Source: a virus. From it: a DNA stretch of 64,000 bases. Where the stretch lies: IMG/VR virus record IMGVR_UViG_3300045988_116708, positions 9,039 to 73,038 of that record, one strand, 5' to 3'. The translations under genes and the position numbers were made by a program. The notes under the pieces were generated by a model that saw only the letters and a list, made by a program, of their open reading frames with translations, did not search any database and was not told where the DNA came from. Shown piece after piece: positions 20,724 through 42,701 of the stretch; within the stretch, counting starts at the first letter, position 1; the number at the start of each line of letters is the position of its first letter.

Positions 20724-21662
20724 ATGCGACAACCAAATGAAATCTATTTGAACGGGAATAATAGTACCGTACAAATTGCGTCAGCTCACGAGACGAGCAA
20801 GACTTTCTCCTATAATGGGAACGATGTCCTTTTTGACATCAAAGATGATGTTATGGTTAACGCCACACAGCTTGCTAAAATCTATGGAAAGCGCCCTGCT
20901 GAATATTTGAGATTGCCAGATACGGTAAAATTGATTAATGCAATTACAAGAAAATATGGTATTTCTGAAAATCAATTAGTTGTAACATCAAAAGGTGGGA
21001 ATATTAGCGATATGGGAAAATCCCACATCGTTGATAATCAACAAGGTACTTGGATGCACAGATTAATAGTAGTTGATTTCTGTCAATGGTTAGACATTGA
21101 TTTGAAACTATGGTGTACCGAGAAGCTTGACGAGTTAATGAGATACGGTATGACCGCCACGCAGCCAACGCTTGAGCAGATGATTAACAACCCTGACCTT
21201 GTTATAAGTCTTGCCACACAACTAAAGAGCGAACGTGAGGAGAAGCAACGATTGGCATTGGAAGTGCAGAAAAAGGAACAGGAGAAGCTGTCTATCATAG
21301 AGGGAACAAAGCCAGCCGTAGTATTCACGGAATGTGTAACAAGCTCGTCTACCAATATTCTCATAGGAGATCTTGCGAAACTTATCACTCAAAACGGATA
21401 TAAGATTGGAGAAATAAGGCTTTATGAATGGATGGTAGAGAACAAGTACCTTATCAGAAAGCAGCGATACAGCAAGTCGAAGAATAAATACGTAAATGAC
21501 TATATGCCCACACAGAGGACGTCAGAAATGGGATTGTTCTTTGTGAAAGAAAGACCGATAGTGTCGGGTGGAAGTCCCATTTTTATAAAACATACCTGTT
21601 ACGTTACAGGTAAAGGCCAGGTGTATTTTCTGAATAAGTTTAAATCTTTAATGGCTGCATGA
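20724..21662 (+). CDS. KilA-N / KilAC (ANT) antirepressor-like protein
   Basis: VMVNATQLAKIYGKRPAEYLRL...QQGTWMHRLIVVDFCQWLDIDLKLW (KilA-N); C-terminal LIGDLAKLITQNGYKIGEIRLYEWMVENKYLIRK (KilAC). Confidence 0.75.
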   Translation: MRQPNEIYLNGNNSTVQIASAHETSKTFSYNGNDVLFDIKDDVMVNATQLAKIYGKRPAEYLRLPDTVKLINAITRKYGISENQLVVTSKGGNISDMGKSHIVDNQQGTWMHRLIVVDFCQWLDIDLKLWCTEKLDELMRYGMTATQPTLEQMINNPDLVISLATQLKSEREEKQRLALEVQKKEQEKLSIIEGTKPAVVFTECVTSSSTNILIGDLAKLITQNGYKIGEIRLYEWMVENKYLIRKQRYSKSKNKYVNDYMPTQRTSEMGLFFVKERPIVSGGSPIFIKHTCYVTGKGQVYFLNKFKSLMAA

Positions 21663-25732: not shown

Positions 25733-25834
25733 CACCATAGCATCTGATGCTAACGTATCCTTTCACGTTCTCGGGTATACGTATTGTTTTATCCGGTCCC
25801 TTTTGGAAGGTATTTATTGTTGTTCAACTAATTA

Positions 25835-25852
25835 CCGTATGAAGATGTACGG
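25835..25852 (+). promoter_or_regulatory. Leader hairpin H2 (portal operon)
   Basis: CCGTA-T-GAAGAT-G-TACGG, 3 nt before ATG 25856. Confidence 0.55.
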
Positions 25853-25855
25853 AAC

Positions 25856-27262
25856 ATGCCCATGGATGAAATAACCGCTATATTAGACAGTACCCGACCT
25901 TTTGATAATATTATCAACGACTTAAAAGAGAAATCAGTCTGTGTCCCCTCATGGGATAAACTTATCAAAGACTATGAACCAACGATGCACGACATAGTTA
26001 CTGATACTGTTACTCGTCAAAACAAGGTAAGGTCTGATGGTACGGTAGAGCAAGCTTCACGTATCTATGTTGGTCTTGAAAAGCTTCTAACGAAGCGAAT
26101 AACAGAGTTCATGTATTCTATTCCGGTAAAACGTATATATCACAATATAGAGGGTAATCCTACCAGACAACAAATAGCAAAAGCGATCGAAGCAATATAC
26201 AAGTATGCTCGTATTGATAGTGAGAATATTAAGCGAGGTAATGCTTACTTTGCATCATGTGAAGTGTTCACTATTTGGTACACAGTTGAGAGCCCCAATA
26301 CTCTATATGGTTTTACAAGTAGATATAAACTAAAATGTAAGACCTACTCACCAATGGACGGTGTTAAGCTATATCCTTTACTTGATGAACTTGGTGATAT
26401 GATCGCAATGTCTTTTGAATACACAAAAAAGGTCAAAAATGAACAAATTACTTTTTTTGAGACATATACAGCAAACATGCATTATAAGTGGAAACAGGAG
26501 GGTAGCGGATGGGAATTAGTCAAATCAGAACCGGTTGCTATTCTAAAAATACCAGGAGTCTACGCCTATTGTTCGGTACCTATTTATCACGGGCTTTCCT
26601 ATATCAGAAAAGAAATAGAATATACCCTTTCACGCAATAGCGATGTAATCGCGTATAATTCCGCTCCTATACTAAAAATAGCTGGTGGGATAAAGGGTAG
26701 TGAGAATAAAGGAGAAAGTCGTAGAGTTTATCGCGTAGAACAAAATGGGGATGTAGCCTATGTTTCGTGGGCACAATCTATCGAGGCATTAAAATACCAT
26801 GTTGACACTTTAGTCAAATTGTTTTGGTCACAATCACAAATGCCAGATATTTCTTTTGAAAACATGAAATCTCTCGGTAATATCGGATTTGATGCAAGGC
26901 AGACTTTACTTACTGACGCTCATTTAAAGGTTGGAGACGAAAGCGGAGCGTGGATAGAAGCATTTGAACGCGAATGTAGTGTAATTAAGGCCTTCTTGAA
27001 AATGATGAATGTTACGTGGAAAGGTGAAGTAGATAATGTTGAAGTTGAGCATGTTATTACTCCGTTTATCCAAAATGATGAAAAGTCAGAAATAGAGAAG
27101 TGGGTTACAGCCAGTGGGGGGAAAGCGGTTGTCAGTCAATTAGAGGCCATCAAGAACTTGGGCATTTCTACCGATCCGCAAGAGACTCTCTCTCAAATTC
27201 AAAAAGAAGATGAAACTGCTTCTAGAATCAGAGTGAGCAACATATTTGAACAATCAGAATAA
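25856..27262 (+). CDS. Portal protein
   Basis: 468 aa; first large structural ORF after the terminase; followed by the MuF, scaffold and capsid genes. Called on position and size. Confidence 0.7.
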   Translation: MPMDEITAILDSTRPFDNIINDLKEKSVCVPSWDKLIKDYEPTMHDIVTDTVTRQNKVRSDGTVEQASRIYVGLEKLLTKRITEFMYSIPVKRIYHNIEGNPTRQQIAKAIEAIYKYARIDSENIKRGNAYFASCEVFTIWYTVESPNTLYGFTSRYKLKCKTYSPMDGVKLYPLLDELGDMIAMSFEYTKKVKNEQITFFETYTANMHYKWKQEGSGWELVKSEPVAILKIPGVYAYCSVPIYHGLSYIRKEIEYTLSRNSDVIAYNSAPILKIAGGIKGSENKGESRRVYRVEQNGDVAYVSWAQSIEALKYHVDTLVKLFWSQSQMPDISFENMKSLGNIGFDARQTLLTDAHLKVGDESGAWIEAFERECSVIKAFLKMMNVTWKGEVDNVEVEHVITPFIQNDEKSEIEKWVTASGGKAVVSQLEAIKNLGISTDPQETLSQIQKEDETASRIRVSNIFEQSE

Positions 27263-27282
27263 TAATCTAAAATATAAATATT

Positions 27283-27573
27283 ATGGCAAAAACGGATACT
27301 CTAGAATTTAATAAAGAAAAACAGGGATATTCCTGCGAATTTACCTCTGTTGGGAAATGTGTAATACAGATAGACAGAGAGAAAAGTGGCACACTTAGTA
27401 TATACGCAAAGTTGGAAGGAATGGATTATGCGCTATTGCATCAATATCCTGCCGCTCAATTCAATGACAATATGATTTTTGAGCTTGACGTACAACAAGG
27501 GCTTTCTATCAAGATACTAAGTTCGGTGGGTGTCATGAGTGCAAAGATGACTTATGAAGATGAAGAGTTGTAG
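27283..27573 (+). CDS. Hypothetical small beta-rich protein (paralog family with 27671 and 55833)
   Basis: [30 protein letters not shown] aligns with [30 protein letters not shown]. Confidence 0.55.
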   Translation: MAKTDTLEFNKEKQGYSCEFTSVGKCVIQIDREKSGTLSIYAKLEGMDYALLHQYPAAQFNDNMIFELDVQQGLSIKILSSVGVMSAKMTYEDEEL

Positions 27574-27670
27574 TAGTGTTACCTTTGTATAAATGCTATC
27601 TCGTATATAAAAATTTTGTAAAAGAATTGATTAAAAATATATATGTAAAAATAATTAAACATTTAATAGT

Positions 27671-28228
27671 GTGGAAAATATTGAATTTAATGAAAAAGAA
27701 GGTTTGTATGTAGCTGATTTTGAATCAAAAGGCAAGTGTGTGATTCAGATTGATAATAATACGGCAGATAATCTTGTTTTTTATCGTTACATGCCAGATA
27801 TGGAGCCAAGCTCATACGATAAGTTGGATTTTGATTGTAGAAAGAGGATATTTGATTTGGATATACCTATTGGAATGATGATACGTATTATTAGTAAGAC
27901 GGAAGTAAAAGCCGCCAAAATGATTGTCATACAACAACCAAACGGTAGCAGTTCTTCTATTACAGAAGTAGAAGCGACTATTGATAATAATACTGGTATT
28001 CCATCTGTGAACGTTTCTACAGAAGATGGTAAATTACAGTTTGACTTTAAAAATCTAAAAGGGACCAAGGGGGATAATGGGACAAATGGCAGTGATGGAG
28101 AAAAAGGTGCGACTGGCGCAAAAATTATGTCCATTGAATTGAGTATTACCGGAACGTCTATTTCAGGTACGGCGCATTTAGATGATGAAAGTACAGCGCC
28201 TATTTCTGGTACATATAATCCAGCATAA
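27671..28228 (+). CDS. Paralog of 27283 with C-terminal extension containing a short collagen-like tract
   Basis: GTG start; [22 protein letters not shown] run. Confidence 0.55.
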
Positions 28229-28253
28229 ACATATAATTTTAAATAATATAAAG

Positions 28254-28970
28254 ATGAAAAAGTACATTGGAACAAAACAAATTGAAGCGGAACCTATAAC
28301 AATGGGTGAAGCATTTGAAAAAGGTTTATTGCAAGTAGGCAGAGTACCCACCGAATCCGAAAAGGACAAAAATGGGTATCGTGTAAGGTACAAGGACGGT
28401 TACGAAAGCTGGTCTCCTGCCGAACCGTTTGAGGAAGCATATAAATGCGCTGACACTTTCCTTGACCGTTTGCAGATTGAGCATGATGATCTTGTAGAAA
28501 AGTATGACAAGTGCGAAAAGTTTGTAGATTCGGATAAGTTCCGTGAAATTGTACAAGAGGATTATCCGGCATTTCTGTTATCATTGCAACGAAATGTGAT
28601 GAATAGATATGGAAGTATTATTGAACAAAGAATGTCCATAGCTAAAGGAGAAACAAGCATTACAACACTTCCAAGAATGTCCTTTGGAGATGCAATCGAA
28701 GCGTTGAAGTTCGGTTTTGCCATCCGTAGAAAAGGCTGGAACGGTAAAGGTCTGATGGTATTCAAACAAATACCAGCGCATATCGAAAGTGATATTATCC
28801 CCAAGATGCAATCACTTCCGCAATCAGCAAAAGACCTTATTCTGAAAGGCAAGGGCTTCATAGACTATACAAGCCAGTGTCTTATCTACAACGAAAATAC
28901 TGGTCGTGCTGATTCATGGGTTCCGTCTATCAGTGATGTATTTGCCGAAGATTGGGAGATTGTACAATAA
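28254..28970 (+). CDS. Two-domain protein with C-terminal DUF2829 (Tad2-like candidate)
   Basis: C-terminus MSFGDAIEALKFGFAIRRKGWNGKGLMVF...SWVPSISDVFAEDWEIV. N-terminus KQIEAEPITMGEAF...GYRVRYKDGYESWSPAEPFEEAY. ATG 28254 is preferred over the track start 28182. Confidence 0.7.
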   Translation: MKKYIGTKQIEAEPITMGEAFEKGLLQVGRVPTESEKDKNGYRVRYKDGYESWSPAEPFEEAYKCADTFLDRLQIEHDDLVEKYDKCEKFVDSDKFREIVQEDYPAFLLSLQRNVMNRYGSIIEQRMSIAKGETSITTLPRMSFGDAIEALKFGFAIRRKGWNGKGLMVFKQIPAHIESDIIPKMQSLPQSAKDLILKGKGFIDYTSQCLIYNENTGRADSWVPSISDVFAEDWEIVQ

Positions 28971-29045
28971 CCTATCTGTCAAGTTGTAGAAAAGTTAAAG
29001 GCAGCGTAGGCATCTGTTTATGCTGCTGGCTTAAAACTTAAAATC

Positions 29046-29414
29046 ATGAAGAAAAAAATATCAAACTGGCTTATTAGATTAGCATCGAAGATCAACCCAC
29101 AAGAAAGACTGAGTAGTATTGAACGAGTTGATAACTACGAAGCAAAGAAGCTAGGCATATGTCTTGCACGGACCAAGAAAGAAATCAAGGACTATCGCAA
29201 AAAGATGAAATTAGATGAAGGTTGGTCTAATCGCAAAGCCGATGAAATGCTTATCAGAGAACTTAAGAACGAAGTGCGCCAGTCAATCAACAACTCTATC
29301 AACCAAAGAGGGTTGGTTGAATACTCCGTTGAAAAGGTTGGTGACGAACTTCATGTTACCGGTGAAATCAAAGTCTATATCAAAAAAGAATCACATGAAA
29401 GTTCCAATAGATGA
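29046..29414 (+). CDS. Hypothetical protein
   Basis: ORF track. Confidence 0.55.
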   Translation: MKKKISNWLIRLASKINPQERLSSIERVDNYEAKKLGICLARTKKEIKDYRKKMKLDEGWSNRKADEMLIRELKNEVRQSINNSINQRGLVEYSVEKVGDELHVTGEIKVYIKKESHESSNR

Positions 29415-29757
29415 AATGACGTTTGCCGAAAGCGAATATCATAGAGGTAACAAAATATGGAATGCCCAAACGTTATACGATTTTGCTAAGGCAAAAGAGT
29501 ATCCAGTTATGGATATGCAACTTTGGTGCATTGATTTGACTACTGAAGCATTTGAATGCAGCCAACTTCATAGTTTCATATTCCAATGCAAGCGGGTTCG
29601 TAACTGTTCGCTTGATTATCCTATCATATTAGATGAAGTTGGCCAAATTGCTGATGGCTATCATCGTTTATGCAAAGCTATATTAGAGGGTAAGGAGACA
29701 ATTAAAGCTATTCGGTTATTGGAAATGCCGGCACCTGATAGGATTGAGGAGGAATAA
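29395..29757 (+). CDS. ParB-like nuclease domain protein
   Basis: YPIILDEVGQIADGYHRLCKAILEGKETIKAIRL resembles the ParB/Srx-fold DGxHR motif. ATG 29395 is preferred over the track start 29215. Confidence 0.55.
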   Translation: MKVPIDEMTFAESEYHRGNKIWNAQTLYDFAKAKEYPVMDMQLWCIDLTTEAFECSQLHSFIFQCKRVRNCSLDYPIILDEVGQIADGYHRLCKAILEGKETIKAIRLLEMPAPDRIEEE

Positions 29758-29758
29758 T

Positions 29759-29899
29759 ATGAAGAAGCATACAAGAATTATTACGGTAGAATATGTTGTA
29801 CGAGATTGCCATATCTGCGGTAAAGTTATAGTGAAGCATCATTTGTATCCAGAAATTGATAAAAAGCAAGAAAAACTGCGTAGATGGCAAAGGAGGTAA
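29759..29899 (+). CDS. Small CxxC protein (46 aa)
   Basis: Below the track cutoff; MKKHTRIITVEYVVRDCHICGK...; SD-like GAGGAGG upstream. Confidence 0.4.
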   Translation: MKKHTRIITVEYVVRDCHICGKVIVKHHLYPEIDKKQEKLRRWQRR

Positions 29900-30057
29900 T
29901 GATTCAGTCTAAATATCATTGTCGAGATTGTGTACATAGCTACGATTGGCATGAGAAAAATAGTAAAGGTGAATTGTTTATGTGTCGATGTCGGCTATCT
30001 AAATGGACTAAATTTTTGAATCGTAATATATGTGATAAGTTTAAGAAGAAAGAATAG
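29899..30057 (+). CDS. Small zinc-finger-like protein (52 aa)
   Basis: TAATG overlap; CRDC...CRC...C. Confidence 0.4.
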   Translation: MIQSKYHCRDCVHSYDWHEKNSKGELFMCRCRLSKWTKFLNRNICDKFKKKE

Positions 30058-30141
30058 GATCTTAAAAATATGCCATAATTATTAGTCTAACCCCCGTGAT
30101 TTTTCTGACAACTTATAGCGTAATATTAAAAATAGGACAAT

Positions 30142-31758
30142 ATGGCAAAACCTAAAATTCCAAATCAGAAAAAGAAGTATCAAGAACTTAACAGTCGGAT
30201 AAATAGGTATGTCGTTCTTGTTGAGCAGATATACGACACACTGAATTTGGACGCCGCCAAAGCTGTTTCACGTACGGAATATTCCTCTGATAGCAATAAA
30301 CCGTTTAAATGGTCCGATTACCCTCAAACTAAAAAACAAATTGACGACATACAAAGGCATTTCGTAGAAGATATAAACGCAATTATCTATCGTGGTACGA
30401 CCGAAGAATGGAAAAATAGTAATGAAGCACAGGATTTGATAGCAAACAGAGTATTAAAAGCATATAACGCACAAGTTGATAGAGAGAAATATAAAGTTTT
30501 GTATCAAGTAAATTCTGATGCTCTGAAAGCATTTCAAAACCGGAAGGATAAAGGATTCAATATATCGGCAAAACTCTGGCAGCAATCTATGATCTACAAA
30601 GAGGAATTGGAGGCTGCGATCTCATGCGCTATTCAAAAAGGAACCAGCGCTGTTACGTTGAGTAAGCAAATATCTCAATACTTACTTGATTTTCCATCAC
30701 TGCAAAAAGATTATAAAGACAGATACGGAAGTGCTGAACATATACAAGATTGTGAATACAGATCTATCCGCCTAGCCCGTTCGGAGATAAACATGGCTTA
30801 TCGAACATCCGAAAATGAACGTTGGAAGCAAATGGATTTCGTAGTAGGATATGAAATTAAATTAAGTTCCTCTCATCACAACCGTATGCCACATGGAGAT
30901 ATTTGTGATACACTTGCCGGAAAATATCCTAAAGATTTCAGCTGGACAGGATGGCACCCGAACGACTTATGCTATAAAGTCCCTATCCTCAAAACAGAAG
31001 AAGAATTCTGGGAATGGGATGGACTGAGCGATGTTTCTACAGAAAGTATTAATGAAGTAAAGGATGTTCCTGACGAATTTAAAAAATGGGTACTTGACAA
31101 CCAACAAAAGATTGAGAAAGCGCGGGAAAGAAACACCTTACCTTATTTTTTGAGAGATAACAAATCAATTGTTCAGAATATAAATACTGAGAATTCAGCT
31201 AAAGAGCTTGTTAATCGTGCTTCTTTAGTTGGGAAGGAGGTACAAAGTTTAGCAGAATCCATCGCTAAAAATAATAAAGGATTTGTAACTCCAATCAATT
31301 ACAAAAGCATTTCATCAATAACAAGAAAAGCGACAACGGAGGGTATAACTCCATACGATATAAAAGACGCAGTTAGGACGACAATCATAGTTCCCAAATC
31401 ACAAATAGATCAAGTCTTGAACGAACTATCTGAAAACGATTCGTTTGTGCGACTGAAAAGACAAAAGCCGGAATCATTTATGGGATATAGTGGCAATATA
31501 GTTAATATTCAAACATCTAACGGATTAATTGCTGAGATTCAAGTTAATACAGACCGTATGATTTATGCCAAAGAAAAACCGGAAGACGCAAAACGAATTC
31601 TTGGAGAAAAACGTTGGAAGAATATACAAAATCAAACAGGTATGAAGGGGGGGCTGGGGCATAAATATTATGAAGAATGGCGAGTATTAGACAAAGCTGA
31701 TAAAAAGGCGCAAAAAATAGTTGAAAAATCAATCGAATATTATAGTCATTTCCAATAA
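30142..31758 (+). CDS. Minor head / head-morphogenesis protein (MuF, SPP1 gp7 family) fused to a C-terminal RelA/SpoT-like nucleotidyltransferase domain
   Basis: MuF core: RLARSEINMAYRTSENERWKQMDFVVGYEI...HGDICDTLAGKYP...WHPNDLCY. C-terminal domain: YKSISSITRK...DIKDAVRTTIIV...GYSGNIVNIQ...AEIQVNTDRMIYAKE...GHKYYEEW follows the order of RSH synthetase motifs. Confidence 0.75.
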   Translation: MAKPKIPNQKKKYQELNSRINRYVVLVEQIYDTLNLDAAKAVSRTEYSSDSNKPFKWSDYPQTKKQIDDIQRHFVEDINAIIYRGTTEEWKNSNEAQDLIANRVLKAYNAQVDREKYKVLYQVNSDALKAFQNRKDKGFNISAKLWQQSMIYKEELEAAISCAIQKGTSAVTLSKQISQYLLDFPSLQKDYKDRYGSAEHIQDCEYRSIRLARSEINMAYRTSENERWKQMDFVVGYEIKLSSSHHNRMPHGDICDTLAGKYPKDFSWTGWHPNDLCYKVPILKTEEEFWEWDGLSDVSTESINEVKDVPDEFKKWVLDNQQKIEKARERNTLPYFLRDNKSIVQNINTENSAKELVNRASLVGKEVQSLAESIAKNNKGFVTPINYKSISSITRKATTEGITPYDIKDAVRTTIIVPKSQIDQVLNELSENDSFVRLKRQKPESFMGYSGNIVNIQTSNGLIAEIQVNTDRMIYAKEKPEDAKRILGEKRWKNIQNQTGMKGGLGHKYYEEWRVLDKADKKAQKIVEKSIEYYSHFQ

Positions 31759-31782
31759 AAATCACTATCTTTACATATAAAA

Positions 31783-32010
31783 ATGAACCAGAAGGAATTA
31801 TATAATAAATTACAGTCAGGCGAAACGGTTTATTTACTTGACGATTTTGAAGAAGCTGTTATCCGTTTATATTTCGATAACGGCCAAACAAAATCATATA
31901 TAAAACATCATGGACGTAATGAAATAGAAATTCCGCAATCCGATGATACAGTGTGTGATATAATTCTTGGAGGAAAAGAGATTTCAAAATCAGAATATGA
32001 CAAATACTAG
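31783..32010 (+). CDS. Small hypothetical protein between the toxin-like domain and the hydrolase
   Basis: ORF track. Confidence 0.5.
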   Translation: MNQKELYNKLQSGETVYLLDDFEEAVIRLYFDNGQTKSYIKHHGRNEIEIPQSDDTVCDIILGGKEISKSEYDKY

Positions 32011-32428
32011 TACTTTATTAGAAAAAGCTCTTCAAATAGCAACTGATGCGCATCTTTATCAAGTTGACAAAGCTGGGGTACCTTATATTTTCCATCCTAT
32101 CCGTGTCTCAAACAGATGTTCTACTGATGACGAAAGGATTGTTGCTTTGCTGCACGATACAATAGAAGATACCGAAGTTACCGCTGAATATTTACTTATG
32201 GAAGGGTTTCCTCGTAATATAGTAGATGCTATACTTTCTGTCACTCGCAACGAGGATGAAAACTATGAAGATTTCATAAAACGCTCTAGGCTTAATCCTA
32301 TAGGAAGACAAGTAAAACTACATGATTTAGAAGACAACATGGATATAACACGTTTGAATGAACTTACAGAAAAGGATCTTTACAGATTGAACAAATACAT
32401 AAAAGCATATAAATATCTTAAAGAATAA
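31997..32428 (+). CDS. HD-domain small alarmone hydrolase (SpoT-hydrolase-like)
   Basis: LEKALQIATDAHLYQVDKAGVPYIFHPIRV...VALLHDTIEDTEVT. ATG 31997 is preferred; the track start 31967 is a TTG. Confidence 0.8.
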   Translation: MTNTSTLLEKALQIATDAHLYQVDKAGVPYIFHPIRVSNRCSTDDERIVALLHDTIEDTEVTAEYLLMEGFPRNIVDAILSVTRNEDENYEDFIKRSRLNPIGRQVKLHDLEDNMDITRLNELTEKDLYRLNKYIKAYKYLKE

Positions 32429-32455
32429 TCGCTGATGTACAATTACATTCAGTTT

Positions 32456-32498
32456 CACGGCACGAAGTACAAGATTACTCTCGTGCCGTGCGTTTATT
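32456..32498 (+). terminator. Intrinsic terminator after the hydrolase gene
   Basis: CACGGCACGA-N15-TCGTGCCGTG then CGTTTATT. Confidence 0.65.
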
Positions 32499-32515
32499 AT
32501 GATAGTTTAACATTG

Positions 32516-32551
32516 AAAGTGGCGTTTAAAACGTCACTTTTGCTACCTTTG
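32516..32551 (+). promoter_or_regulatory. Palindrome + promoter cassette 4
   Basis: AAAGTGGCG-N7-CGTCACTTT then TACCTTTG at 32544-32551. Confidence 0.55.
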
Positions 32552-32559
32552 TGTCAGAA

Positions 32560-32577
32560 GCGTATGAAGATGTACGC
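32560..32577 (+). promoter_or_regulatory. Leader hairpin H3 (scaffold/capsid operon)
   Basis: GCGTA-T-GAAGAT-G-TACGC; same loop as H2, with the outer pair swapped C-G to G-C. Confidence 0.55.
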
Positions 32578-32663
32578 CACAGAACTTGTCGTGTTGTGAT
32601 TTGCTTCAATTTAGCACGATTGAACGAAACTCATTGCTCTAATGTTTAGTAAAGTTCTAAGCG

Positions 32664-32702
32664 AATAGTCTGCTGGCATACGTGCTACGCAGACTATTTT
32701 TG
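32664..32702 (+). terminator. Intrinsic terminator inside the capsid-operon leader
   Basis: AATAGTCTGC-N15-GCAGACTATT then TTTTG, 19 nt before ATG 32721. Confidence 0.6.
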
Positions 32703-32720
32703 TAATTAAAACATTATACA

Positions 32721-33440
32721 ATGGACAGAAAACAACAAGTATTGTTGAGATTGAAACCGAAAGTGAAGGCATTCGGGTTCAATTCAAGGGAATTAAAGGG
32801 TATTGCTGCCAAGATTGCCGATAACCTTACTTCCGCAGATGATGCCTCAGATGAAGACGTAAATGCAGAAATTGACAAAGAGATTGACTCCGCATTACGT
32901 TACTTGCCTTTCGGCCAGTCACAAGCCAATCGCTTGCTTGATGAATGGAAGAAAAATCACCCTGAAACAGATGACGACGACAACGATGACGATGATGACG
33001 ACGACGGAGCTTCGGATAATCAAAGACGTCAAGCTGGTTCAAACACCAAAAATCCCAAAAACAAAGGAAAGAATGATGATGCTCCGGAATGGGCTAAAGG
33101 TTTGGTTCAGACAGTACAAACACTGAATGACGAAATCGCAGCATTGAAAGGTGAAAAAGTTACCACTACACGTAGAGAGAAACTTGAAACCCTTTTAAAA
33201 GATGCTGGTACATTCGGAACTCGCACATTGAAATCCTTCAATAAAATGAAGTTTGAAAATGATGAAGAGTTTGAAGAATTCTATTCCGAAGTTGAGGAAG
33301 ATTTAAAATCTTACAACCAAGAACGTGCCGACGCAGGACTATCTAGTTTGGGGAATCCTCCAGGTGCAGGAAGTAAGAAACAAGAAAAAAATGAAGTATT
33401 AACCGATGAAGAGGTTATAGCAATTGCTAAAGGCCTTTAA
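32721..33440 (+). CDS. Head scaffolding protein
   Basis: Acidic and helical, with the poly-Asp tract DDDNDDDDDDDG; sits upstream of the capsid gene. Confidence 0.65.
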   Translation: MDRKQQVLLRLKPKVKAFGFNSRELKGIAAKIADNLTSADDASDEDVNAEIDKEIDSALRYLPFGQSQANRLLDEWKKNHPETDDDDNDDDDDDDGASDNQRRQAGSNTKNPKNKGKNDDAPEWAKGLVQTVQTLNDEIAALKGEKVTTTRREKLETLLKDAGTFGTRTLKSFNKMKFENDEEFEEFYSEVEEDLKSYNQERADAGLSSLGNPPGAGSKKQEKNEVLTDEEVIAIAKGL

Positions 33441-33457
33441 TCAAAAGTAAAATTAAA

Positions 33458-33859
33458 ATGGGCGCAAAAGCTGATTTAGTAAACGAACAGGAGACGATTT
33501 TAACCGGAATGGATTCGATTGTTATTCGTAACTATTTGGGCGGAATTATGAATGGGCGGACATTAGACATGACTGGATTTAAGCAGTCTGTAATTAAAGC
33601 CGGTCATATTGTTATCCGCGATACAGAGAACGATACCTATAAGCCAATGCCTGTTAACTCAGCAGGCACAGCTTACGAATCATTGCCATCTAATCATGAA
33701 TACGTTGGTGTTGTTGTTTGTTCAAAACCTGCCGACAAGCCATTCGTTGGTATTATGTATGCTGGTGAAGTAAATGATGTGGCGAGTCCTTATCCTATTG
33801 ACAGCATTAAGGCTGCATTAAAAACGGCATTGCCGCAATTGGCTTTTTTACACGATTAA
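33458..33859 (+). CDS. Head-associated protein (decoration-like, positional call)
   Basis: 133 aa between the scaffold and capsid genes. Confidence 0.45.
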   Translation: MGAKADLVNEQETILTGMDSIVIRNYLGGIMNGRTLDMTGFKQSVIKAGHIVIRDTENDTYKPMPVNSAGTAYESLPSNHEYVGVVVCSKPADKPFVGIMYAGEVNDVASPYPIDSIKAALKTALPQLAFLHD

Positions 33860-33873
33860 AAAGGAGGTGAAAG

Positions 33874-35211
33874 ATGAATGAATCATTATTTATTGAATTT
33901 GTAAAAAAAATATGGCCCAAATTGAGCCTATATGTGAAAGAAAAGACCAATGGAACAAATAAGAATTTGACCTATCTTCACAAAACTATGCTTACCAGAG
34001 TATATTCTCCTGATCAAAAATGGGAAGGTACTTCTGCTAACACTACTTATGTAGCAGCGGATATGGTAGCTATGGATTCTCCTTTGTCTCCCAAGAAACG
34101 TGACTCTATTGCACGTTCTAGTGGTGAATTGCCTAAAGTTGGTATTAAAAAGATTCTGAGAGAAACTCAGATCAACGCTATTAATATCATGAAAGCACAT
34201 TTGTCTAATGCCACTACAGAGGAAGCGCAAAAATCTCTCAAAAACAGAATCTTTTCTCGATTAACTGATGACGGAACCGCATGTTCTGTTGGTATTGATG
34301 AAAGGAATGAAGCTAATTTCCTTACTGGGCTGTCTGATGGGGTTATTATTGTTGAAGGTGATGATGATAAAAATTCCGGTCTCGGACTTCGTGTAAATTA
34401 TGGTTATTTGCCAGAACATAGTTTTGGTGTTGTTACTACCGGAGAAGTAACAGGTGATGATATTGAAAGAGTTATAGGTAAAGCCAACGATGACGGGAAT
34501 AGCATTTCTGTTATCATGTTAGCGTTGTCTACCTATAACAAAATGCGTCAATCTCAATGGGCTAAGGAATTGGTGGCAAGTTATCGAGGGCAAACCTTTG
34601 ATAATGAAACAAAGTTGCCTGTTCCCACTTCTACGTTGTTTGATGAAGCATTTTCTGATCAATATAATGGCATTTCATTCTTTAAGATTGATCGTTCTGT
34701 CACTTATGAAAAGAATGGTAAAAGAGTTTCTTATAAGCCGTGGAATGCAAATAAACTTATATTCCTTCCTTCTGCTGACAATGTAGGTTCTTTTGTATGG
34801 GGAACTTTGGCTGAATCTACTAACCCTGTCAAGGGAGTAGAATATACCATTGTTGATGAATATAAGCTGATTAGCCGTTACTCCAAAACAGACCCGTTGC
34901 AGGAATTTACGAATGGGCAGGCTCTTTGTTTGCCGGTTATTGAGAATGTAGACCAGATTTATTCATTGGATATTCTGGAAGCTCAAACAGTAGATACAAC
35001 GAAAGAATCTGAGGATTCTACTGATGTAAAGATTACGATTTGGGGAGTAACTTACAAGAAGCCAGAATTTGTGACAGAATACAATAAAATCGCTGGTAAA
35101 AACTTGACTTCCACCGTTTCCGATGATAAACTTATCGCGGCAGTCAACAGATTGAGTGATGCAGACGAAGCATCGTTGAAAAAAGCGGTTGAATCCCATA
35201 AAGCAACATAA
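33874..35211 (+). CDS. Major capsid protein
   Basis: 445 aa; strong SD-like AAGGAGGTG upstream. Called on position and size. Confidence 0.7.
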   Translation: MNESLFIEFVKKIWPKLSLYVKEKTNGTNKNLTYLHKTMLTRVYSPDQKWEGTSANTTYVAADMVAMDSPLSPKKRDSIARSSGELPKVGIKKILRETQINAINIMKAHLSNATTEEAQKSLKNRIFSRLTDDGTACSVGIDERNEANFLTGLSDGVIIVEGDDDKNSGLGLRVNYGYLPEHSFGVVTTGEVTGDDIERVIGKANDDGNSISVIMLALSTYNKMRQSQWAKELVASYRGQTFDNETKLPVPTSTLFDEAFSDQYNGISFFKIDRSVTYEKNGKRVSYKPWNANKLIFLPSADNVGSFVWGTLAESTNPVKGVEYTIVDEYKLISRYSKTDPLQEFTNGQALCLPVIENVDQIYSLDILEAQTVDTTKESEDSTDVKITIWGVTYKKPEFVTEYNKIAGKNLTSTVSDDKLIAAVNRLSDADEASLKKAVESHKAT

Positions 35212-35214
35212 TCC

Positions 35215-35553
35215 ATGAAGACAATTCAGCAAGCCCTTATAGACGAAATACATTACCCGATTCCAGCTGGTTTTGTAGAGAATGTTATGATTAAACGTAA
35301 TCTCAAAGTTGATGAAGAGTTTGATTATGACGTTTCTCGTTCCAACGAATATCAGGGGGCATTAGCTGATTGTCTTTGGTCTTTAGTTCAGTCTATCAAT
35401 TTTTCTGAAGCAGATAAGTCTTTTGGATCTTTATCTGATAAAGACAAAGAGCGAATTTTGTTACGTGTCAACTCTATCTACAATACTATTGGTGAGCCTT
35501 CGGTAGAACTGGAGGCAAAGCCGATGGTATATGTAGGTGATTGCTTGTTATAG
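35215..35553 (+). CDS. Head-tail connector protein (positional)
   Basis: Synteny after the capsid gene. Confidence 0.45.
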   Translation: MKTIQQALIDEIHYPIPAGFVENVMIKRNLKVDEEFDYDVSRSNEYQGALADCLWSLVQSINFSEADKSFGSLSDKDKERILLRVNSIYNTIGEPSVELEAKPMVYVGDCLL

Positions 35554-36795: not shown

Positions 36796-37344
36796 ATGGC
36801 AGTTATAGGGTGGGGGAAACCTCGTATATTTATTAAAGATTTGGATGCAAGTTCTCCAAAGTGGGAAGAGCTTCCGACTCCTGTAGAGGATTCTACACAA
36901 TTGACAACAACCAAAGGAGATAAACAGGAAGCCAAGATTGAAGGTGGGGAAAACGAAGACGTAAAGTATGGCAAAAATACTTATGCTCTTGCTCTCAACA
37001 TTCGTGCCGCAAAGGGACGCAAAAGACCTATTAGTGATAGTGATGGTGTAGTTGCTCACAATTACGCTATTGCGTTACAGCCGGAGGATCCGGAAGTTCA
37101 AGGTTTCTGTATGGAAAAGACTACTGTTTCTGTTGAAGATACATTTACTACGGCAGATGGTGGTGTTTGGGCGTATATGTTTGATGCATTAAAACCTGGT
37201 TCCGACAAAAAGCAAATTCAATGGGGTAAAATTATTGTCACTCCGAACACTGGTACACCAACTAAAATTGAATGTGATCCAGAAGATGAATCCGGAGATG
37301 GGGATAAGTTTGAAGTAGCTCCTAATCCGGGTGTAGGAGGTTAA
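36796..37344 (+). CDS. Major tail protein
   Basis: 182 aa; lies upstream of the chaperone-like gene and tape measure. Confidence 0.6.
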   Translation: MAVIGWGKPRIFIKDLDASSPKWEELPTPVEDSTQLTTTKGDKQEAKIEGGENEDVKYGKNTYALALNIRAAKGRKRPISDSDGVVAHNYAIALQPEDPEVQGFCMEKTTVSVEDTFTTADGGVWAYMFDALKPGSDKKQIQWGKIIVTPNTGTPTKIECDPEDESGDGDKFEVAPNPGVGG

Positions 37345-37365
37345 GTTTTGATAGGTAATGCCGAG

Positions 37366-37392
37366 CGTGGGGGCGTAATACCCACGTGTTTT
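37366..37392 (+). terminator. Intrinsic terminator after the major tail gene
   Basis: CGTGGG-N9-CCCACG then TGTTTT. Confidence 0.55.
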
Positions 37393-37463
37393 GCGGAGAT
37401 GGTGTAATGGTTGCATATATATCATCCAGATATCAGGTTACGGTTCAAATCCGTATCTCCGCT
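37393..37463 (+). tRNA. tRNA-like element with a non-canonical anticodon arm (Gly-UCC-like?)
   Basis: Acceptor GCGGAGA/TCTCCGC, D-arm GTGT-AATGGTT-GCAT, T-arm TACGG-TTCAAAT-CCGTA. The anticodon arm folds as ATATC-ATCCA-GATAT (5-nt loop), or as a 7-nt loop CAUCCAG with A at position 33. Confidence 0.5.
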
Positions 37464-37540
37464 CTGTTTTTTGAGAATCTGATTTGTTGTTCATAATTTA
37501 ATGTCGGTTGTCTGTGAAGATAGCCGATAAAAAATAATTG

Positions 37541-38257
37541 ATGATGAAAGAAACTATAAAAGATATAGACGCGGATATTGCTGATATAATAATGAGCGTT
37601 CCGAGAGGATTTAAAGTGGGTAAAAGAAAGTTCTATCTTTATCCTATTACTCTTGGTAAAACATATCTTATTTCACGCCTTATGTCTTCTTTGAATATAA
37701 ATCTAAAAATAGTACACGCTAATCCATACATGGAGGCTTTAAGGCTATGCCAAGACAAGAAAAATATTGTATGCCGTATATTATCCTATCACACAATTAA
37801 TAAGAAAAAAGATTTGTTTGATAATGATGTGATTCAGGAAAGATGTGATTTTTTTATTAAAGAACTTGATAATGAAAGTTTGGCACAACTGCTTGTGATG
37901 GTCCTTTCCGAAGGGGATATATCTCAATTTACTAAGCATTTAGGCATTGACAAAGAAAAAGAGTGGCAAGAAAAGGCGATGAAGGCTAAAAGAGACAATA
38001 ATTCTTTCGTTTTCGGTGGAAAAAGTATATATGGTACACTAATAAGTTCTGCTTGTGAACGTTATGGCTGGACTTTTGAATATGTTGTATGGGGAATAAG
38101 CTATGCCAATCTGCAACTACTTCTTGCCGATTCTATAACGTCTATCTATTTGTCTGACGAAGAACGTAAGCGAGTTAATATACCTAAAGACCGCAACGTG
38201 ATAAATGCTGATGATCCGGCAAATATGGCAAGGATTAAGGCAATGAAATGGGATTGA
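37541..38257 (+). CDS. Tail assembly chaperone-like protein (positional)
   Basis: Lies between the major tail and tape measure genes; no frameshift site recognised; hairpin 37504-37527 upstream. Confidence 0.4.
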   Translation: MMKETIKDIDADIADIIMSVPRGFKVGKRKFYLYPITLGKTYLISRLMSSLNINLKIVHANPYMEALRLCQDKKNIVCRILSYHTINKKKDLFDNDVIQERCDFFIKELDNESLAQLLVMVLSEGDISQFTKHLGIDKEKEWQEKAMKAKRDNNSFVFGGKSIYGTLISSACERYGWTFEYVVWGISYANLQLLLADSITSIYLSDEERKRVNIPKDRNVINADDPANMARIKAMKWD

Positions 38258-38269
38258 TTCAACATAAAT

Positions 38270-38356
38270 GTATGCAATAACTGGGTTTCTTCGGAAATAA
38301 CCCCAGTTTCTTCGGAAATAATACGGTATTATTCCGTGATTAATCACTGATTATTC
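38270..38356. repeat. Dispersed repeat shared with 24503-24569, with an internal duplication
   Basis: GTTTCTTCGGAAATAAC is duplicated here; the 53-nt block 38304-38356 is identical to 24517-24569. Confidence 0.8.
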
Positions 38357-38361
38357 CGTGA

Positions 38362-38405
38362 TCACTACGTGAACACTACGTAATCACTACGTCAACACTA
38401 CGTGA
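38362..38405. repeat. Four tandem 11-bp iterons
   Basis: TCACTACGTGA / ACACTACGTAA / TCACTACGTCA / ACACTACGTGA. Confidence 0.75.
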
Positions 38406-38460
38406 TTTTTAAAATATATTAATTCTTATCTGTTTTATATTGAATACAGATAAAAATATC

Positions 38461-38468
38461 TATATTTG
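38461..38468 (+). promoter_or_regulatory. -7 promoter box
   Basis: TATATTTG preceded by IR TATCTGT...ACAGATA; followed by hairpin GTAACA...TGTTAC. Confidence 0.5.
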
Positions 38469-38879
38469 CATCTGTAACAAGTACGAGATGTTACCAGACA
38501 TTGATTCAGTATTCTCCTGTACGGAGTTTATATATGAATAGCCTCGTAGTAGCTCGTACCTATTACGGGGCTTTCTATTTAAAGCCAGTTATACAATCGG
38601 TTCTATCAGTGCCAACCGTTCCGAACTTTGACAGCGGAGAGATAAAATGGCTCTTATGTTTTGCACTATATGTCTTTTATTGGAAAGTCCTGCTCTGTTC
38701 CTATCACCTAACAACAGGCGCCCAAGCGTTGTATTACGATAACCAATAAGGGATGAATCAAAGATATTGGAGAAGTATTGAGTGTTAAAGCAACAAAATG
38801 GATAATTGAAGTTTAATAAAGTCCATCCACCTCCTAATAATTATCTTGGGAGAAAGGGTGAGGTATAAAATTAGTCAAC

Positions 38880-39365
38880 ATGGAAGAGATATATTCGTTT
38901 GAAGAAATTGCAGATTATATCAATAAGCGTAATTTAGCCGTATCTCCTGAGTACGTTGTTAGTTATTGGACAAAGAAAAAATGGATAACTAAGAAAGGGA
39001 CTCCTGTAAAAACATTAGCTGCTGTTGTTGATGTTGCTAATAGCATATTTCTCACTAAAAAGAGAAGAGAGAAAGGAGAGCCAACTTCTAATTTAAAATC
39101 TCTTCGGAAAATGAAGAGAGAAAAAGAAAAATTAGAATATACTAAATTTACCACTTATAATAACCAACTTCAAGATGATAGATGGATAGCGTTTAGAAAC
39201 TTTGTTCTTACAGCAAGAGGGAAACGTTGTGAAAAATGTGGGAGTGACAAACATATTCAAATACATCATCCATATTATATTAAAGGAAGAGCTGCATGGG
39301 AATACAACTGCTTAGATGTTATCGTATTATGTAGTTGTTGTCATGAAAAAGAGCATCACATTTAA
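38880..39365 (+). CDS. HNH endonuclease
   Basis: CEKCGSDKHIQIHHPYY...LCSCCHEKEHH. Confidence 0.75.
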   Translation: MEEIYSFEEIADYINKRNLAVSPEYVVSYWTKKKWITKKGTPVKTLAAVVDVANSIFLTKKRREKGEPTSNLKSLRKMKREKEKLEYTKFTTYNNQLQDDRWIAFRNFVLTARGKRCEKCGSDKHIQIHHPYYIKGRAAWEYNCLDVIVLCSCCHEKEHHI

Positions 39366-39394
39366 AAGAACAATATAACTTTAAATTATAGTTT

Positions 39395-39781
39395 ATGAAT
39401 GAACTTGTTTTCAAAGGTCAGAATGACCAAGTTTTAACAAGCAGCCTTTTGGTGGCTGAGAAGTTCGGGAAAGAACATAGTAACGTATTAAAAGCTATTG
39501 ATGCTTTAGCTTCTAAAATGCCTGAAAATCAATGTAAAGTATATTTTGACGATACATCAATAGAAATGCAGCAGCCTAATGGTGGTATACGTTATTCTCG
39601 AGTTGTTGTTATGAACAGGGATGGATTTAGTTTACTTGTAATGGGATTTACTGGCAAAAAGGCTTTTGATTTTAAATCTGATTTTTACGATGCTTTTGAA
39701 GCGATGGAAAAAGCGCTAAAAGAGCAAAGGAAGCCATTGTCTCAACTTGATTTTGGAATTTGTTTACGCAAGACCTTTTAG
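39395..39781 (+). CDS. Rha-family phage regulatory protein
   Basis: VLTSSLLVAEKFGKEHSNVLKAIDAL. Confidence 0.7.
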   Translation: MNELVFKGQNDQVLTSSLLVAEKFGKEHSNVLKAIDALASKMPENQCKVYFDDTSIEMQQPNGGIRYSRVVVMNRDGFSLLVMGFTGKKAFDFKSDFYDAFEAMEKALKEQRKPLSQLDFGICLRKTF

Positions 39782-39844
39782 AGAAATATTCAAGGTGTCA
39801 AATTTAGTTTTTACTGCTTTTTATCAGTTACTTAGATAATATGT

Positions 39845-39870
39845 AAAAAAGGCCAGGAGTAATCCCAGCC
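39845..39870 (-). terminator. Terminator of the BIG2 lipoprotein gene
   Basis: Minus strand: GGCTGGGATTACTCCTGGCC hairpin followed by TTTTTT. Confidence 0.55.
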
Positions 39871-39889
39871 TAAAAAAAGAAAAAGGATA

Positions 39890-41284
39890 TTAGTATTGTT
39901 TGTATTGCTTAGATACCTTATATTCTTTTCCTGCATAATTAAATGTCCAAATAAATATAGGCAAATAAACATATCTCATTTGACCGCCTAAATTTGTTGT
40001 TTGTCCGGCTGCTAAAGCGCCCAATTTTGATGCATCATCTGTATATAATACAATATTTTCACTCAATCCATCTTTTACCTCAAACTTAGTAAGAGATATC
40101 TCTTTAGAACTTGTGTTGGTTATGTAACAATACACAGACCCTGTTATATAACCATTAATGGATACAATAGATGAAGAGCTTATACCCAGATTCATAAAAT
40201 CGGAAATCTCAGCTGATACAACTTCGCAAGTGGCAGTATGGGCACCATCTTCTGTAGTTATTGTTATTGTAGAAGTACCTTCCTTCAATGCTGTAACCTT
40301 TCCATTATTGTCTACAGAAACAGTGTTGGGTGCAGAACTGCTAAATTTTACATTTTTATTCTCTGCATTTTCAGGTAAAATAGAATATGTCAATGTATAG
40401 CTTTCTCCATTCAGAATCTTAACTGAAGATTCTGTAAACTGAACTCCTTTTACCGAAAAAGGCAAAACATTCACAGTACACTGCGCTTTAAAATTCCCAT
40501 CATTAGTAGTGGCAATTATGTTACATGTACCTTTTGCCAATGCAGTCACCAATCCGTCTTCTACCTTTGCAATATTAGGATCGCTGGAAGACCATTTGAT
40601 ACTTTTGTCCTTTGCATTTTCAGGAGATACAGTAGCTGTTAGAGTAAATGACTTGCCGGCTTCAATAGATTTAGTTGTTTCATTCAATGTAACTCCTGTA
40701 ACCTTAATAGGATTCACTTTAACAACACATTTGGCGTAGGTATCACTTCCTTTGACTTTGACTGTAATAGTACATTCACCATCGGAAACGGCTGTAACCT
40801 CGCCATCTGCATTAACCGTTGCTATAGTTTTATCCGAAGACTCCCACTCCACTTCTTTGTTGGTAGTATTTTCAGGTTCTATCGTATACTCCAAACGGAA
40901 TGATTCACCGGTAGTCATCGTCTTCTCACTCTCAGATAGTTTGATATCAGTTGCTTCAATTGGAGTTACAGTGACCTTACATATATCTTTCAATTTTAGA
41001 TTAAAAGAAGAAACTGATATAGTAACCTCTCCAACAGACTTTCCATAAACAATACCGTTTTCAACAGTTGCAATTGTTTCATCAGAAGAATTCCATTCAT
41101 ATTCGGGAGCGGGTAAATCTGCTGGCGAATGGCTGACAGTGAGAGTTATTTTCTCACCAACCTTTACTGAAGCTTCACTTTTAGAAATTTCGATAGATTG
41201 TACAACAGGTTTGTCATCATCGCCACAAGAAGATAATGATAGAATAGAAACAATAGATAGTAACAATAAAATAGTTCGTTTCAT
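39890..41284 (-). CDS. Surface lipoprotein with about five tandem BIG2 (bacterial Ig-like) domains and a distinct C-terminal domain
   Basis: MKRTILLLLSIVSILSLSSCGDD lipobox; repeated units such as ...VGEKITLTVSHSP...WNSSDETIATVENGIVYGKSVGEVTISV. Confidence 0.85.
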   Translation of the reverse strand: MKRTILLLLSIVSILSLSSCGDDDKPVVQSIEISKSEASVKVGEKITLTVSHSPADLPAPEYEWNSSDETIATVENGIVYGKSVGEVTISVSSFNLKLKDICKVTVTPIEATDIKLSESEKTMTTGESFRLEYTIEPENTTNKEVEWESSDKTIATVNADGEVTAVSDGECTITVKVKGSDTYAKCVVKVNPIKVTGVTLNETTKSIEAGKSFTLTATVSPENAKDKSIKWSSSDPNIAKVEDGLVTALAKGTCNIIATTNDGNFKAQCTVNVLPFSVKGVQFTESSVKILNGESYTLTYSILPENAENKNVKFSSSAPNTVSVDNNGKVTALKEGTSTITITTEDGAHTATCEVVSAEISDFMNLGISSSSIVSINGYITGSVYCYITNTSSKEISLTKFEVKDGLSENIVLYTDDASKLGALAAGQTTNLGGQMRYVYLPIFIWTFNYAGKEYKVSKQYKQY

Positions 41285-41316
41285 GAATATAACACTTTAA
41301 TATTAAAAATATTTTG

Positions 41317-41324
41317 CAAATATA
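41317..41324 (-). promoter_or_regulatory. -7 promoter box of the lipoprotein gene
   Basis: Plus-strand CAAATATA = TATATTTG on the minus strand, 33 nt upstream of ATG 41284. Confidence 0.55.
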
Positions 41325-41407
41325 ATTTATATATACAATTCATCCTTTTCTTATATTATATTAAATAGTCCTACAAGGTTAATAAAATAAAATACTGTCT
41401 GCTAACT

Positions 41408-41690
41408 ACGTCACTTTTGCGATTATGCCATAATTTTGTAGATGATTTTTTAAGCGCAGATTAGATATAATTTGTATCTTTGTGGTGCTAACAACTTATA
41501 GGAGCGGCAAACTCCTATGGCTTCATCATTGGAGCTATTTTTTTGCCAGTACATATAACAAGTAGTATCATAATTTAAGATATTGCGCACGAACGGTGGG
41601 GTAACAGAAATGTCCCCAAACTAAATTCCTATGAGTTTGTTAGCAGCCGTGAACGTGCGCATTTTTTTGTTATGCTAACAAACTCGATTC
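41408..41690 (+). promoter_or_regulatory. Half cassette, promoter and about 230-nt structured leader of the Bro-N gene
   Basis: ACGTCACTTTTG 41408-41419; TAATTTTG 41431-41438; a terminator-like GCGCACG...CGTGCGC+T7; and the 13-bp pairing GAGTTTGTTAGCA / TGCTAACAAACTC that covers ATG 41672. Confidence 0.5.
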
Positions 41691-42532: not shown

Positions 42533-42604
42533 CACTATTGCATAATTATCAGCGGTCCTTTTCAATGCAGGACAGCCTAAGTTGTACACAATAAAATATT
42601 ACCT

Positions 42605-42676
42605 ATGAAAGTTGAATTAGATGTTAATCAATATATGGAAATGCTCAAAGCATTTACGGAATATTCAGACAAATAG
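42605..42676 (+). pseudogene. 23-codon remnant homologous to the N-terminus of 6224-6424
   Basis: MKVELDVNQYMEMLKAFTEYSDK* vs MIKVEISQYLAMLKSFTECAQY... Confidence 0.45.
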
Positions 42677-42701
42677 AACAATTTTAAAAAATAAACGTTT
42701 T

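Follow-up and report, generated by a model that had tools for sequence, protein, structure and literature searches.

A Bacteroides fragilis prophage carries the Apk2-Tis1-Aph1 system

We studied three adjacent genes in a 64,000-nucleotide (nt) window of the IMG/VR virus record IMGVR_UViG_3300045988_116708 (positions 9,039 to 73,038 of that record). The first, apk2, encodes a protein of 538 amino acids (aa) in which a MuF-type minor head domain is fused to a predicted (p)ppApp synthetase toxin. It is followed by a gene for a 75-aa Tis1-like protein (tis1-like, or iapK) and by aph1, which encodes a 143-aa HD-domain protein (Table 1). These three genes are a B. fragilis prophage copy of the characterised Apk2-Tis1(IapK)-Aph1 system. 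The window is a prophage, carrying terminase, portal, major head, tape measure and integrase genes. An open reading frame (ORF) call confirmed the positions of the three genes given in the initial annotation of this DNA.

The Apk2(Bc)-BcTis1-Aph1 system of Bacteroides caccae, encoded by BACCAC_01148/01147/01146 respectively (PMC10083569), agrees with the window in its three genes and their order, in protein lengths (538, 75 and 143 aa) and in position in the head module. The fusion protein of the window is identical to its B. caccae counterpart (P0086) at 497 of 538 residues (92%, 41 substitutions), and the two toxin domains match at 179 of 190 (94%). The Tis1-like protein is 89% identical to BcTis1, with 8 substitutions, and the HD protein is 93% identical to Aph1 (133/143, 10 substitutions). 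The MuF head protein with a RelA/SpoT homologue (RSH)-type toxin at its end, as described in the initial annotation, thus matches a published protein, and the combination of a MuF toxin with an alarmone hydrolase is not new. The two loci differ in host background, that of the window being of B. fragilis type. B. fragilis proteins annotated "hypothetical protein" match the fusion at 100% identity, and proteins of B. ovatus, B. caccae, P. vulgatus and B. thetaiotaomicron match it at 90-94%.

We also compared the window with a B. caccae-type contig (L001), in which genes for the 75-aa protein (89% identical) and the 143-aa protein (93% identical) lie downstream of apk2. Over the head module the two are syntenic, with nucleotide identities of 80-90%. 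The best conserved block is the toxin-immunity stretch, with approximately 90.6% nucleotide identity over positions 30142-32592. Specific to the window are a block at 27567-28966, which includes a Tad2-like gene, and small ORFs at 29758-30141.

In the B. caccae system the toxin domain inhibits growth of E. coli and makes (p)ppApp. BcTis1 and Aph1 each give partial protection, which becomes complete when they are combined (PMC10083569). The initial annotation had proposed that the hydrolase and/or the 75-aa protein could protect the cell; by analogy with these orthologues, both probably do so.

The toxin domain and its two immunity proteins

A phmmer search aligned the C-terminal domain of the fusion (residues 358-535) with residues 254-431 of the Pseudomonas aeruginosa toxin Tas1 (6OX6_A; E 4.2e-26). 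An AlphaFold2 (AF2) model of the full 538-aa protein had a predicted local distance difference test (pLDDT) score of 88. Its best Foldseek match in the PDB was again Tas1 (E 5.3e-11), with a TM-score of 0.85, a root-mean-square deviation of 2.3 Å and 33% identity. Both searches agree with the reading of this domain as a RelA/SpoT-like synthetase in the initial annotation. Every motif quoted there is present in the fusion and HD proteins. In the toxin domain the synthetase-type motifs are YKSISSITRK (aa 387-396), DIKDAVRTTIIV (aa 406-417), GYSGNIVNIQ (aa 448-457), AEIQVNTDRMIYAKE (aa 464-478) and GHKYYEEW (aa 506-513).

The product of the toxin domain is predicted by homology to be (p)ppApp, because the domain is 94% identical to a (p)ppApp-making enzyme and because in both sequence and fold it lies nearest to Tas1 rather than to (p)ppGpp synthetases or CapRel. 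The initial annotation had considered the class of product unreadable from the sequence. These two lines of evidence, together with six residues of the neighbouring hydrolase described below, allow (p)ppApp to be inferred.

The HD protein matched the "(p)ppApp hydrolase" of PDB entry 7SMG over its whole length (residues 1-143 against 1-143; phmmer E 7.8e-85). Like the match of the toxin domain to Tas1, this similarity is far greater than chance would give. The entry is Aph1 of B. caccae, whose substrates are pApp, ppApp and pppApp, whilst ppGpp is left uncleaved (Ahmad et al. 2023, PMC10083569). The ORF spans 31967-32428, with a possible TTG start at 31967 and an ATG at 31997 that gives 143 aa; the Met encoded by this ATG corresponds to residue 1 of the crystallised homologue. 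Catalytic residues are kept, namely H33 in the HP..RV motif and H53-D54 in LLHDTIEDT. Six residues mark (p)ppApp hydrolases (D24, R96, D116, R119, K133 and Y134), of which D24 and R119 set adenine specificity (PMC10083569). All six are found at the same positions in the window protein, which also matched phrog_990 (E 1.7e-48). The protein is thus predicted to hydrolyse pApp, ppApp and pppApp but not ppGpp, and the role of second antidote proposed for it in the initial annotation is well matched by its likeness to Aph1.

Evidence for the 75-aa protein came from both profiles and structure. Its score against the Pfam family Tis1_ImmP (PF24154) was 22.9 bits (E 9.5e-5), set against a gathering score of 27, and precomputed PF24154 matches exist for several relatives that are 63-91% identical to it. 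Direct sequence comparison with Tis1 (6OX6_B) gave a weak match (E 0.44). The AF2 model of the protein had a pLDDT of 83, and its top Foldseek match in the PDB was 6OX6_B (E 1e-2, probability 1.0, TM-score 0.55, 24% identity); the runner-up had an E-value of 0.38. The 75-aa protein is likely to bind the toxin and occlude its active site, as judged from its 89% identity to BcTis1.

The N-terminal domain belongs to the wider MuF superfamily

The fusion protein matched phrog_7625 ("head morphogenesis") over aa 17-526 with an E-value of 2e-86. Its N-terminal domain (N-domain) also matched phrog_1657 ("head morphogenesis", E 2.7e-25) and phrog_115 ("minor head protein", E 5.3e-14). When gp7 of phage SPP1 was searched in the same way, its best family was phrog_115 (E 1.5e-66), and it also matched phrog_7625, the family of the window protein (E 1.7e-5). 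In the structural model, the N-terminal ~310 residues had dozens of Foldseek matches in BFVD (E 1e-7 to 1e-3), with names such as "Minor capsid protein", "Phage head morphogenesis domain" and "MuF-like minor capsid protein". The motifs of this domain are RLARSEINMAYRT (aa 210-222), HGDICDTLAGKYP (aa 251-263) and WHPNDLCY (aa 271-278).

Several results weigh against reading the module as an Apk2 system with a MuF carrier. All four Pfam domain models (RelA_SpoT, HD_4, Tis1_ImmP and Phage_Mu_F) miss their gathering thresholds. The Pfam checks suggested in the initial annotation were accordingly weak or negative: RelA_SpoT (PF04607) matched the fusion protein weakly, at 16-19 bits and under the gathering score, and HD_4 was seen on the HD protein at 21.5 bits, again under the gathering score. 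Phage_Mu_F (PF04233) did not match either the full protein or aa 1-350 at E<=10, nor did it match any of 73 N-domain family representatives scanned. The NCBIfam model for SPP1 gp7 proteins (TIGR01641, phageSPP1_gp7) scored a non-significant 11.4 bits (E 0.31). A hidden Markov model built from 150 N-domain representatives scored SPP1 gp7 at 0.2 bits, and hhalign of the same alignment against gp7 was colinear over 264 columns with an E-value of 0.16; neither is significant. For the 75-aa protein, a profile of 18 close homologues did not recover Tis1 among PDB sequences, the alignment being shallow. The window allele also departs from the assayed B. caccae proteins at 11 positions of the toxin domain and at 8 of the Tis1-like protein. 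Finally, the presence of a MuF toxin in virions, or its injection, was not demonstrated in PMC10083569 (discussion) or PMC11699363.

The MuF superfamily had already been defined more widely than PF04233 (their "MuF1") by Jamet et al. 2017 (PMC5576092). The N-domain belongs to this wider superfamily and not to the PF04233 model as such. We base the assignment on the PHROG matches, the cross-matches of SPP1 gp7 and the fold matches in BFVD, and not on Pfam. The MuF signature reported in the initial annotation thus stands on profile and fold comparison, whilst the PF04233 and TIGR01641 models fail to recognise it. This case shows that Pfam gathering thresholds can miss all four domains of an Apk2 system. 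It also makes re-annotation possible: a widespread set of "hypothetical proteins", encoded by B. fragilis, B. ovatus, P. vulgatus and B. thetaiotaomicron, can be named Apk2, Tis1-like (IapK) and Aph1.

Relatives of the N-domain carry variable C-termini and putative inteins

The N-domain is shared by 2912 representative clusters (50% identity) with variable C-termini. Apk2tox, the toxin domain of the window protein, is carried by 15 of the 150 best N-domain representatives. Other C-termini, found among 73 scanned representatives without Apk2tox, included Gln_amidase (13), ADPrib_exo_Tox (6), CdiA_C (3), Zeta_toxin and PIN_8. The N-domain behaves as a polymorphic-toxin carrier. Published C-termini of this Bacteroidales family are an ADP-ribosyltransferase, a glutamine deamidase and an Apk2-like domain, and a P. 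vulgatus Apk2 homologue has an adjacent Aph1-like gene (PMC11699363).

A group of 877-aa relatives, comprising alleles from B. fragilis and metagenomes (P0029-P0035 and P0071), was considered as possible C-terminal toxin swaps. This was rejected, as each is the same protein interrupted by ~339 additional aa, on both sides of which the identity is 95-98%. The insertion falls inside the conserved WHPN..CY motif, at aa 274/277 of the window protein (approximately nt 30963-30972). It begins with Cys, its ..GSN end is directly succeeded by a further Cys, and two LAGLIDADG-like motifs lie within it. Weak but consistent support for an intein came from Pfam (LAGLIDADG_3, E 0.0012; Intein_splicing, E 0.023) and from PDB matches to V-ATPase and NrdHF inteins (E 0.006-0.04). 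One N-domain relative matched Intein_splicing at E 4e-6, and one BFVD match was named "Intein splicing domain". Many N-domain representatives match in two pieces, the first mostly ending at aa 279-303. These observations suggest that inteins are common in the MuF genes of this family. The window allele of apk2 is without one.

Proposed mechanism and delivery of the toxin

The molecular mechanism is very probably that of a MuF-carried (p)ppApp synthetase which depletes ATP and ADP, is blocked by the Tis1-like protein and has its products recycled by Aph1. We propose both the synthetase activity and the Tis1-like block because the window proteins are nearly identical to proteins that have been tested. 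The toxin domain of Apk2 would move pyrophosphate from ATP onto the 3'-OH of ATP, ADP or AMP. The resulting pppApp, ppApp and pApp would drain the adenylate pool and halt growth. The Tis1-like protein would bind the toxin and block its active site, and Aph1 would turn (p)ppApp back into ATP, ADP or AMP. Cotranscribed, the tis1-like and aph1 genes would protect the producing cell. The MuF domain would act as the carrier, bringing the toxin into the capsid and then, with the DNA, into a new host.

This last step is less certain than the enzymology. We consider it about evenly balanced whether the fusion enters the capsid via its MuF domain and reaches a new host with the DNA. The proposal draws on the position of the gene and on the account of SPP1 gp7 in PMC10083569, according to which minor capsid proteins of this type bind the portal and DNA. 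The B. fragilis prophage offers a setting in which packaging and injection of MuF toxins could be tested.

It is possible, although we would put it rather short of an even chance, that the module is not a packaged weapon. It could instead have some other role within the lysogen or outside it, serving in prophage addiction or abortive infection, or acting as a lysis-released toxin or a gut-colonisation factor, the MuF part being for head assembly only. The lack of a demonstrated MuF toxin in virions favours this explanation. So does Bxa, a toxin of the same N-domain family (phrog_16625) which is reported to act on host epithelial cells and to aid colonisation (PMC11699363), as does the weaker toxicity of full-length B. 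caccae Apk2 compared with its toxin domain in free form (PMC10083569). Against it, apk2 is located between the portal and major head genes, and its N-domain resembles the portal- and DNA-binding minor capsid proteins of SPP1 gp7 type. The target of the toxin, the ATP pool, is moreover cytoplasmic, and entry into a cell is therefore needed.

A more elaborate version of capsid delivery seems unlikely to us. Here, capsid-loaded Apk2 would transiently collapse the adenylate pool of an infected Bacteroides cell as a counter-defence or takeover effector, after which the cell would be reset by early expression of Aph1 and of the Tis1-like protein. The interval from the portal to the MuF gene would be an anti-defence island, with the Tad2-like anti-Thoeris gene lying 1.2 kb upstream, and intein alleles would add a conditional maturation step.

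The identity of the product is better constrained. That the C-terminal domain is a small alarmone synthetase (SAS) toxin of FaRel type, making (p)ppGpp or having dual specificity, with the HD protein as a general small alarmone hydrolase, is very improbable. The weak Pfam RelA_SpoT match is compatible with such an enzyme, and the syn2 motif of the window domain, DAVRT, holds the AVR that is typical of RSH enzymes (PMC12226406). SAS1 and Rel, along with CapRel, are also the next fold matches in Foldseek, but at E >= 5e-4 and with much lower TM-scores than Tas1, which is by far the best match in both sequence and fold. The domain is moreover 94% identical to an enzyme whose product was measured as (p)ppApp, and the hydrolase is 93% identical to Aph1, which does not hydrolyse ppGpp, and keeps D24 and R119 (PMC10083569). 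A tRNA 3'-pyrophosphokinase of the CapRel/FaRel2/PhRel2 type, blocking translation, is barely credible, although the initial annotation had allowed for a modified tRNA as product: CapRel (7ZTB) does appear among the fold matches (E 1.3e-3), but in ninth place and with a TM-score of 0.29 against 0.85 for Tas1, the measured product of the orthologue is (p)ppApp (PMC10083569), and an adjacent (p)ppApp-specific enzyme that hydrolyses the product is to be expected only if this product is a nucleotide. The reading we retain is that of a MuF-carried (p)ppApp synthetase.

Comparison with other toxin systems

A list published in 2017 (PMC5576092) already included RelA-like MuF toxins, and their characterisation followed in 2023-2025. 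The architecture of the window module, its product, both immunity mechanisms and the Bacteroidales family of polymorphic MuF toxins are all already known from published work (PMC10083569, PMC12226406, PMC11699363).

The Tas1-Tis1 (Apk1) pair of the P. aeruginosa type VI secretion system (T6SS; 6OX6) has a homologous C-terminal toxin, with an immunity protein of the same fold encoded directly downstream. Its carrier is a PAAR domain for T6SS delivery, in place of the MuF domain of the window, and the pair is without a hydrolase immunity gene. BcTis1 gives no protection against Tas1 (PMC10083569). The prophage Apk2-IapK-Aph1 systems of Streptococcus pneumoniae, Mannheimia haemolytica and Pasteurella multocida follow the same tripartite logic of MuF carrier and synthetase, binder and hydrolase (PMC12226406). 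In these systems the hydrolases are interchangeable and the binders are specific to their cognate toxins (PMC12226406). The proteins are distant, at 35-57% identity among themselves, and are reported to have RYT in syn2 where the window protein has AVR.

Bxa-Bsi-BAH, from a Bacteroides stercoris phage (PMC11699363), shares the Bacteroidales MuF-type N-domain, with phrog_16625 matching the window protein at E 5e-68. Like the window module it has dual immunity, with one binder and one enzymatic reversal protein. Unlike it, Bxa-Bsi-BAH pairs an ADP-ribosyltransferase toxin with an ADP-ribosylhydrolase as its enzymatic immunity protein. In FaRel-ATfaRel and other toxic small alarmone synthetase (toxSAS) systems, an RSH-family toxin is neutralised by a small alarmone hydrolase that degrades its product, as in the window. 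However, toxSAS of the FaRel/CapRel type are stand-alone two-gene modules without a virion carrier or a Tis1-like occluding protein, whereas in the window the synthetase forms the last third of a head protein 538 aa long. FaRel makes ppGpp and ppApp, and other toxSAS modify tRNA.

Genomic context and expression of the module

The apk2 module sits within the head block, between the portal and major head genes, and variable small accessory genes separate it from the portal gene (Table 1). Only 24 nt lie between apk2 and the 75-aa ORF, which overlaps aph1 by 14 nt. No second or orphan copies were found when the three module proteins were searched with tblastn against the whole window. When positions 25800-35300 were compared by megablast with 50,697 phage records, the matches were confined to ~250 nt of the Tad2-like/DUF2829 gene, and none of the isolated phages in this collection had the apk2 module at >=85% identity.

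Table 1. Positions of the apk2 module and of the main phage genes in the window.
Feature	Position	Strand	Description	Basis
apk2	30142-31758	+	538-aa fusion of MuF domain and (p)ppApp synthetase toxin (predicted)	ORF call and homology
MuF-type minor head (carrier) domain	30142-31185	+	aa 1-~348 of the fusion	PHROG profiles, fold comparison
Apk2tox	31186-31755	+	Tas1-like adenosine 3'-pyrophosphokinase domain (predicted), aa ~349-538 (~190 residues)	
tis1-like / iapK	31783-32010	+	75-aa non-enzymatic immunity protein (predicted)	
aph1	31997-32428	+	143-aa HD-domain (p)ppApp hydrolase, enzymatic immunity protein (predicted)	
Possible terminator	32456-32490	+	strong hairpin then U-rich tract, just 3' of aph1	inferred
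Portal protein	25856-27262	+		Pfam SPP1_portal E 9.2e-31; phrog_64 E 1.2e-46
Major head protein	33874-35211	+		phrog_29 E 3.8e-31
Terminase	18788-20254			Pfam/PHROG searches
Tape measure protein	43301-47383			Pfam/PHROG searches
Integrase	62550-63800	-		Pfam/PHROG searches

Between aph1 and the next head gene lies a 290-nt spacer (32429-32720) with several long hairpins. The fold of positions 32420-32725 had a minimum free energy of -94.1 kcal/mol, with a z-score of -4.8 relative to shuffled controls. At the gathering score no Rfam family matched in the spacer. At its start are a long hairpin and a U-rich tail, a possible terminator of the three-gene unit, although a simple terminator scan did not call this hairpin (32456-32490). 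The spacer as a whole could combine a terminator with a leader that regulates the scaffold and capsid genes. Scans of positions 29700-32800 for sigma-70 promoters and terminators did not exceed the shuffled expectation. The Bacteroides-type TTTG/TAnnTTTG pattern had 5 matches against 3.7 expected, with none near the module. These scans give no ground to claim a separate promoter for the immunity genes.

Other features of the prophage

Two paralogous small ORFs on the plus strand lie directly 3' of the portal gene (27283-27573 and 27671-28228). Their N-terminal ~35 residues are alike, and a collagen-like GxxGxxG run occurs in the second. The B. caccae-type contig shares the first but not the second. 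They are followed by a gene (28182-28970, plus strand) for a 262-aa protein in which a domain related to crAss001_48 (E 5.9e-12) is joined to a Tad2-like Thoeris anti-defence domain (PF11195, E 1.7e-18). This gene, between the portal gene and apk2, is in the 27567-28966 block that is absent from the contig. The same block has the only stretches matched by megablast in isolated Bacteroides phages, which fall in the DUF2829 gene and in a hypothetical protein.

Just upstream of apk2, and conserved in the B. caccae-type contig, is a small protein with a DGYHRL motif (29395-29757, plus strand, inside the ORF 29215-29757). It matched phrog_17560, a family of unknown function (E 2.6e-16), and no Pfam family. 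We take the motif to resemble the DGHHR sites of ParB/sulfiredoxin type.

Further downstream, the region 37327-43035 is absent from the synteny with the contig. A tRNA-Gly gene (anticodon TCC) is located amid the structural genes at 37393-37464 on the plus strand. An Rfam c4-2 antisense RNA (RF02944; 53.9 bits, E 4.7e-9) was found at 41581-41666 on the same strand, directly upstream of a Bro-N/ANT antirepressor gene (41672-42532). This pairing resembles the P1/P7-style c4-ant immunity arrangement, here in a Bacteroides prophage. Another ANT gene, of KilA-N/ANT type, lies at 20724-21662. In the tail-gene region, the opposite strand (39890-41284, minus) has a gene that looks like a moron; its 464-aa product carries a lipoprotein-like signal sequence at the N-terminus and four Big_2 domains (E 2e-62).

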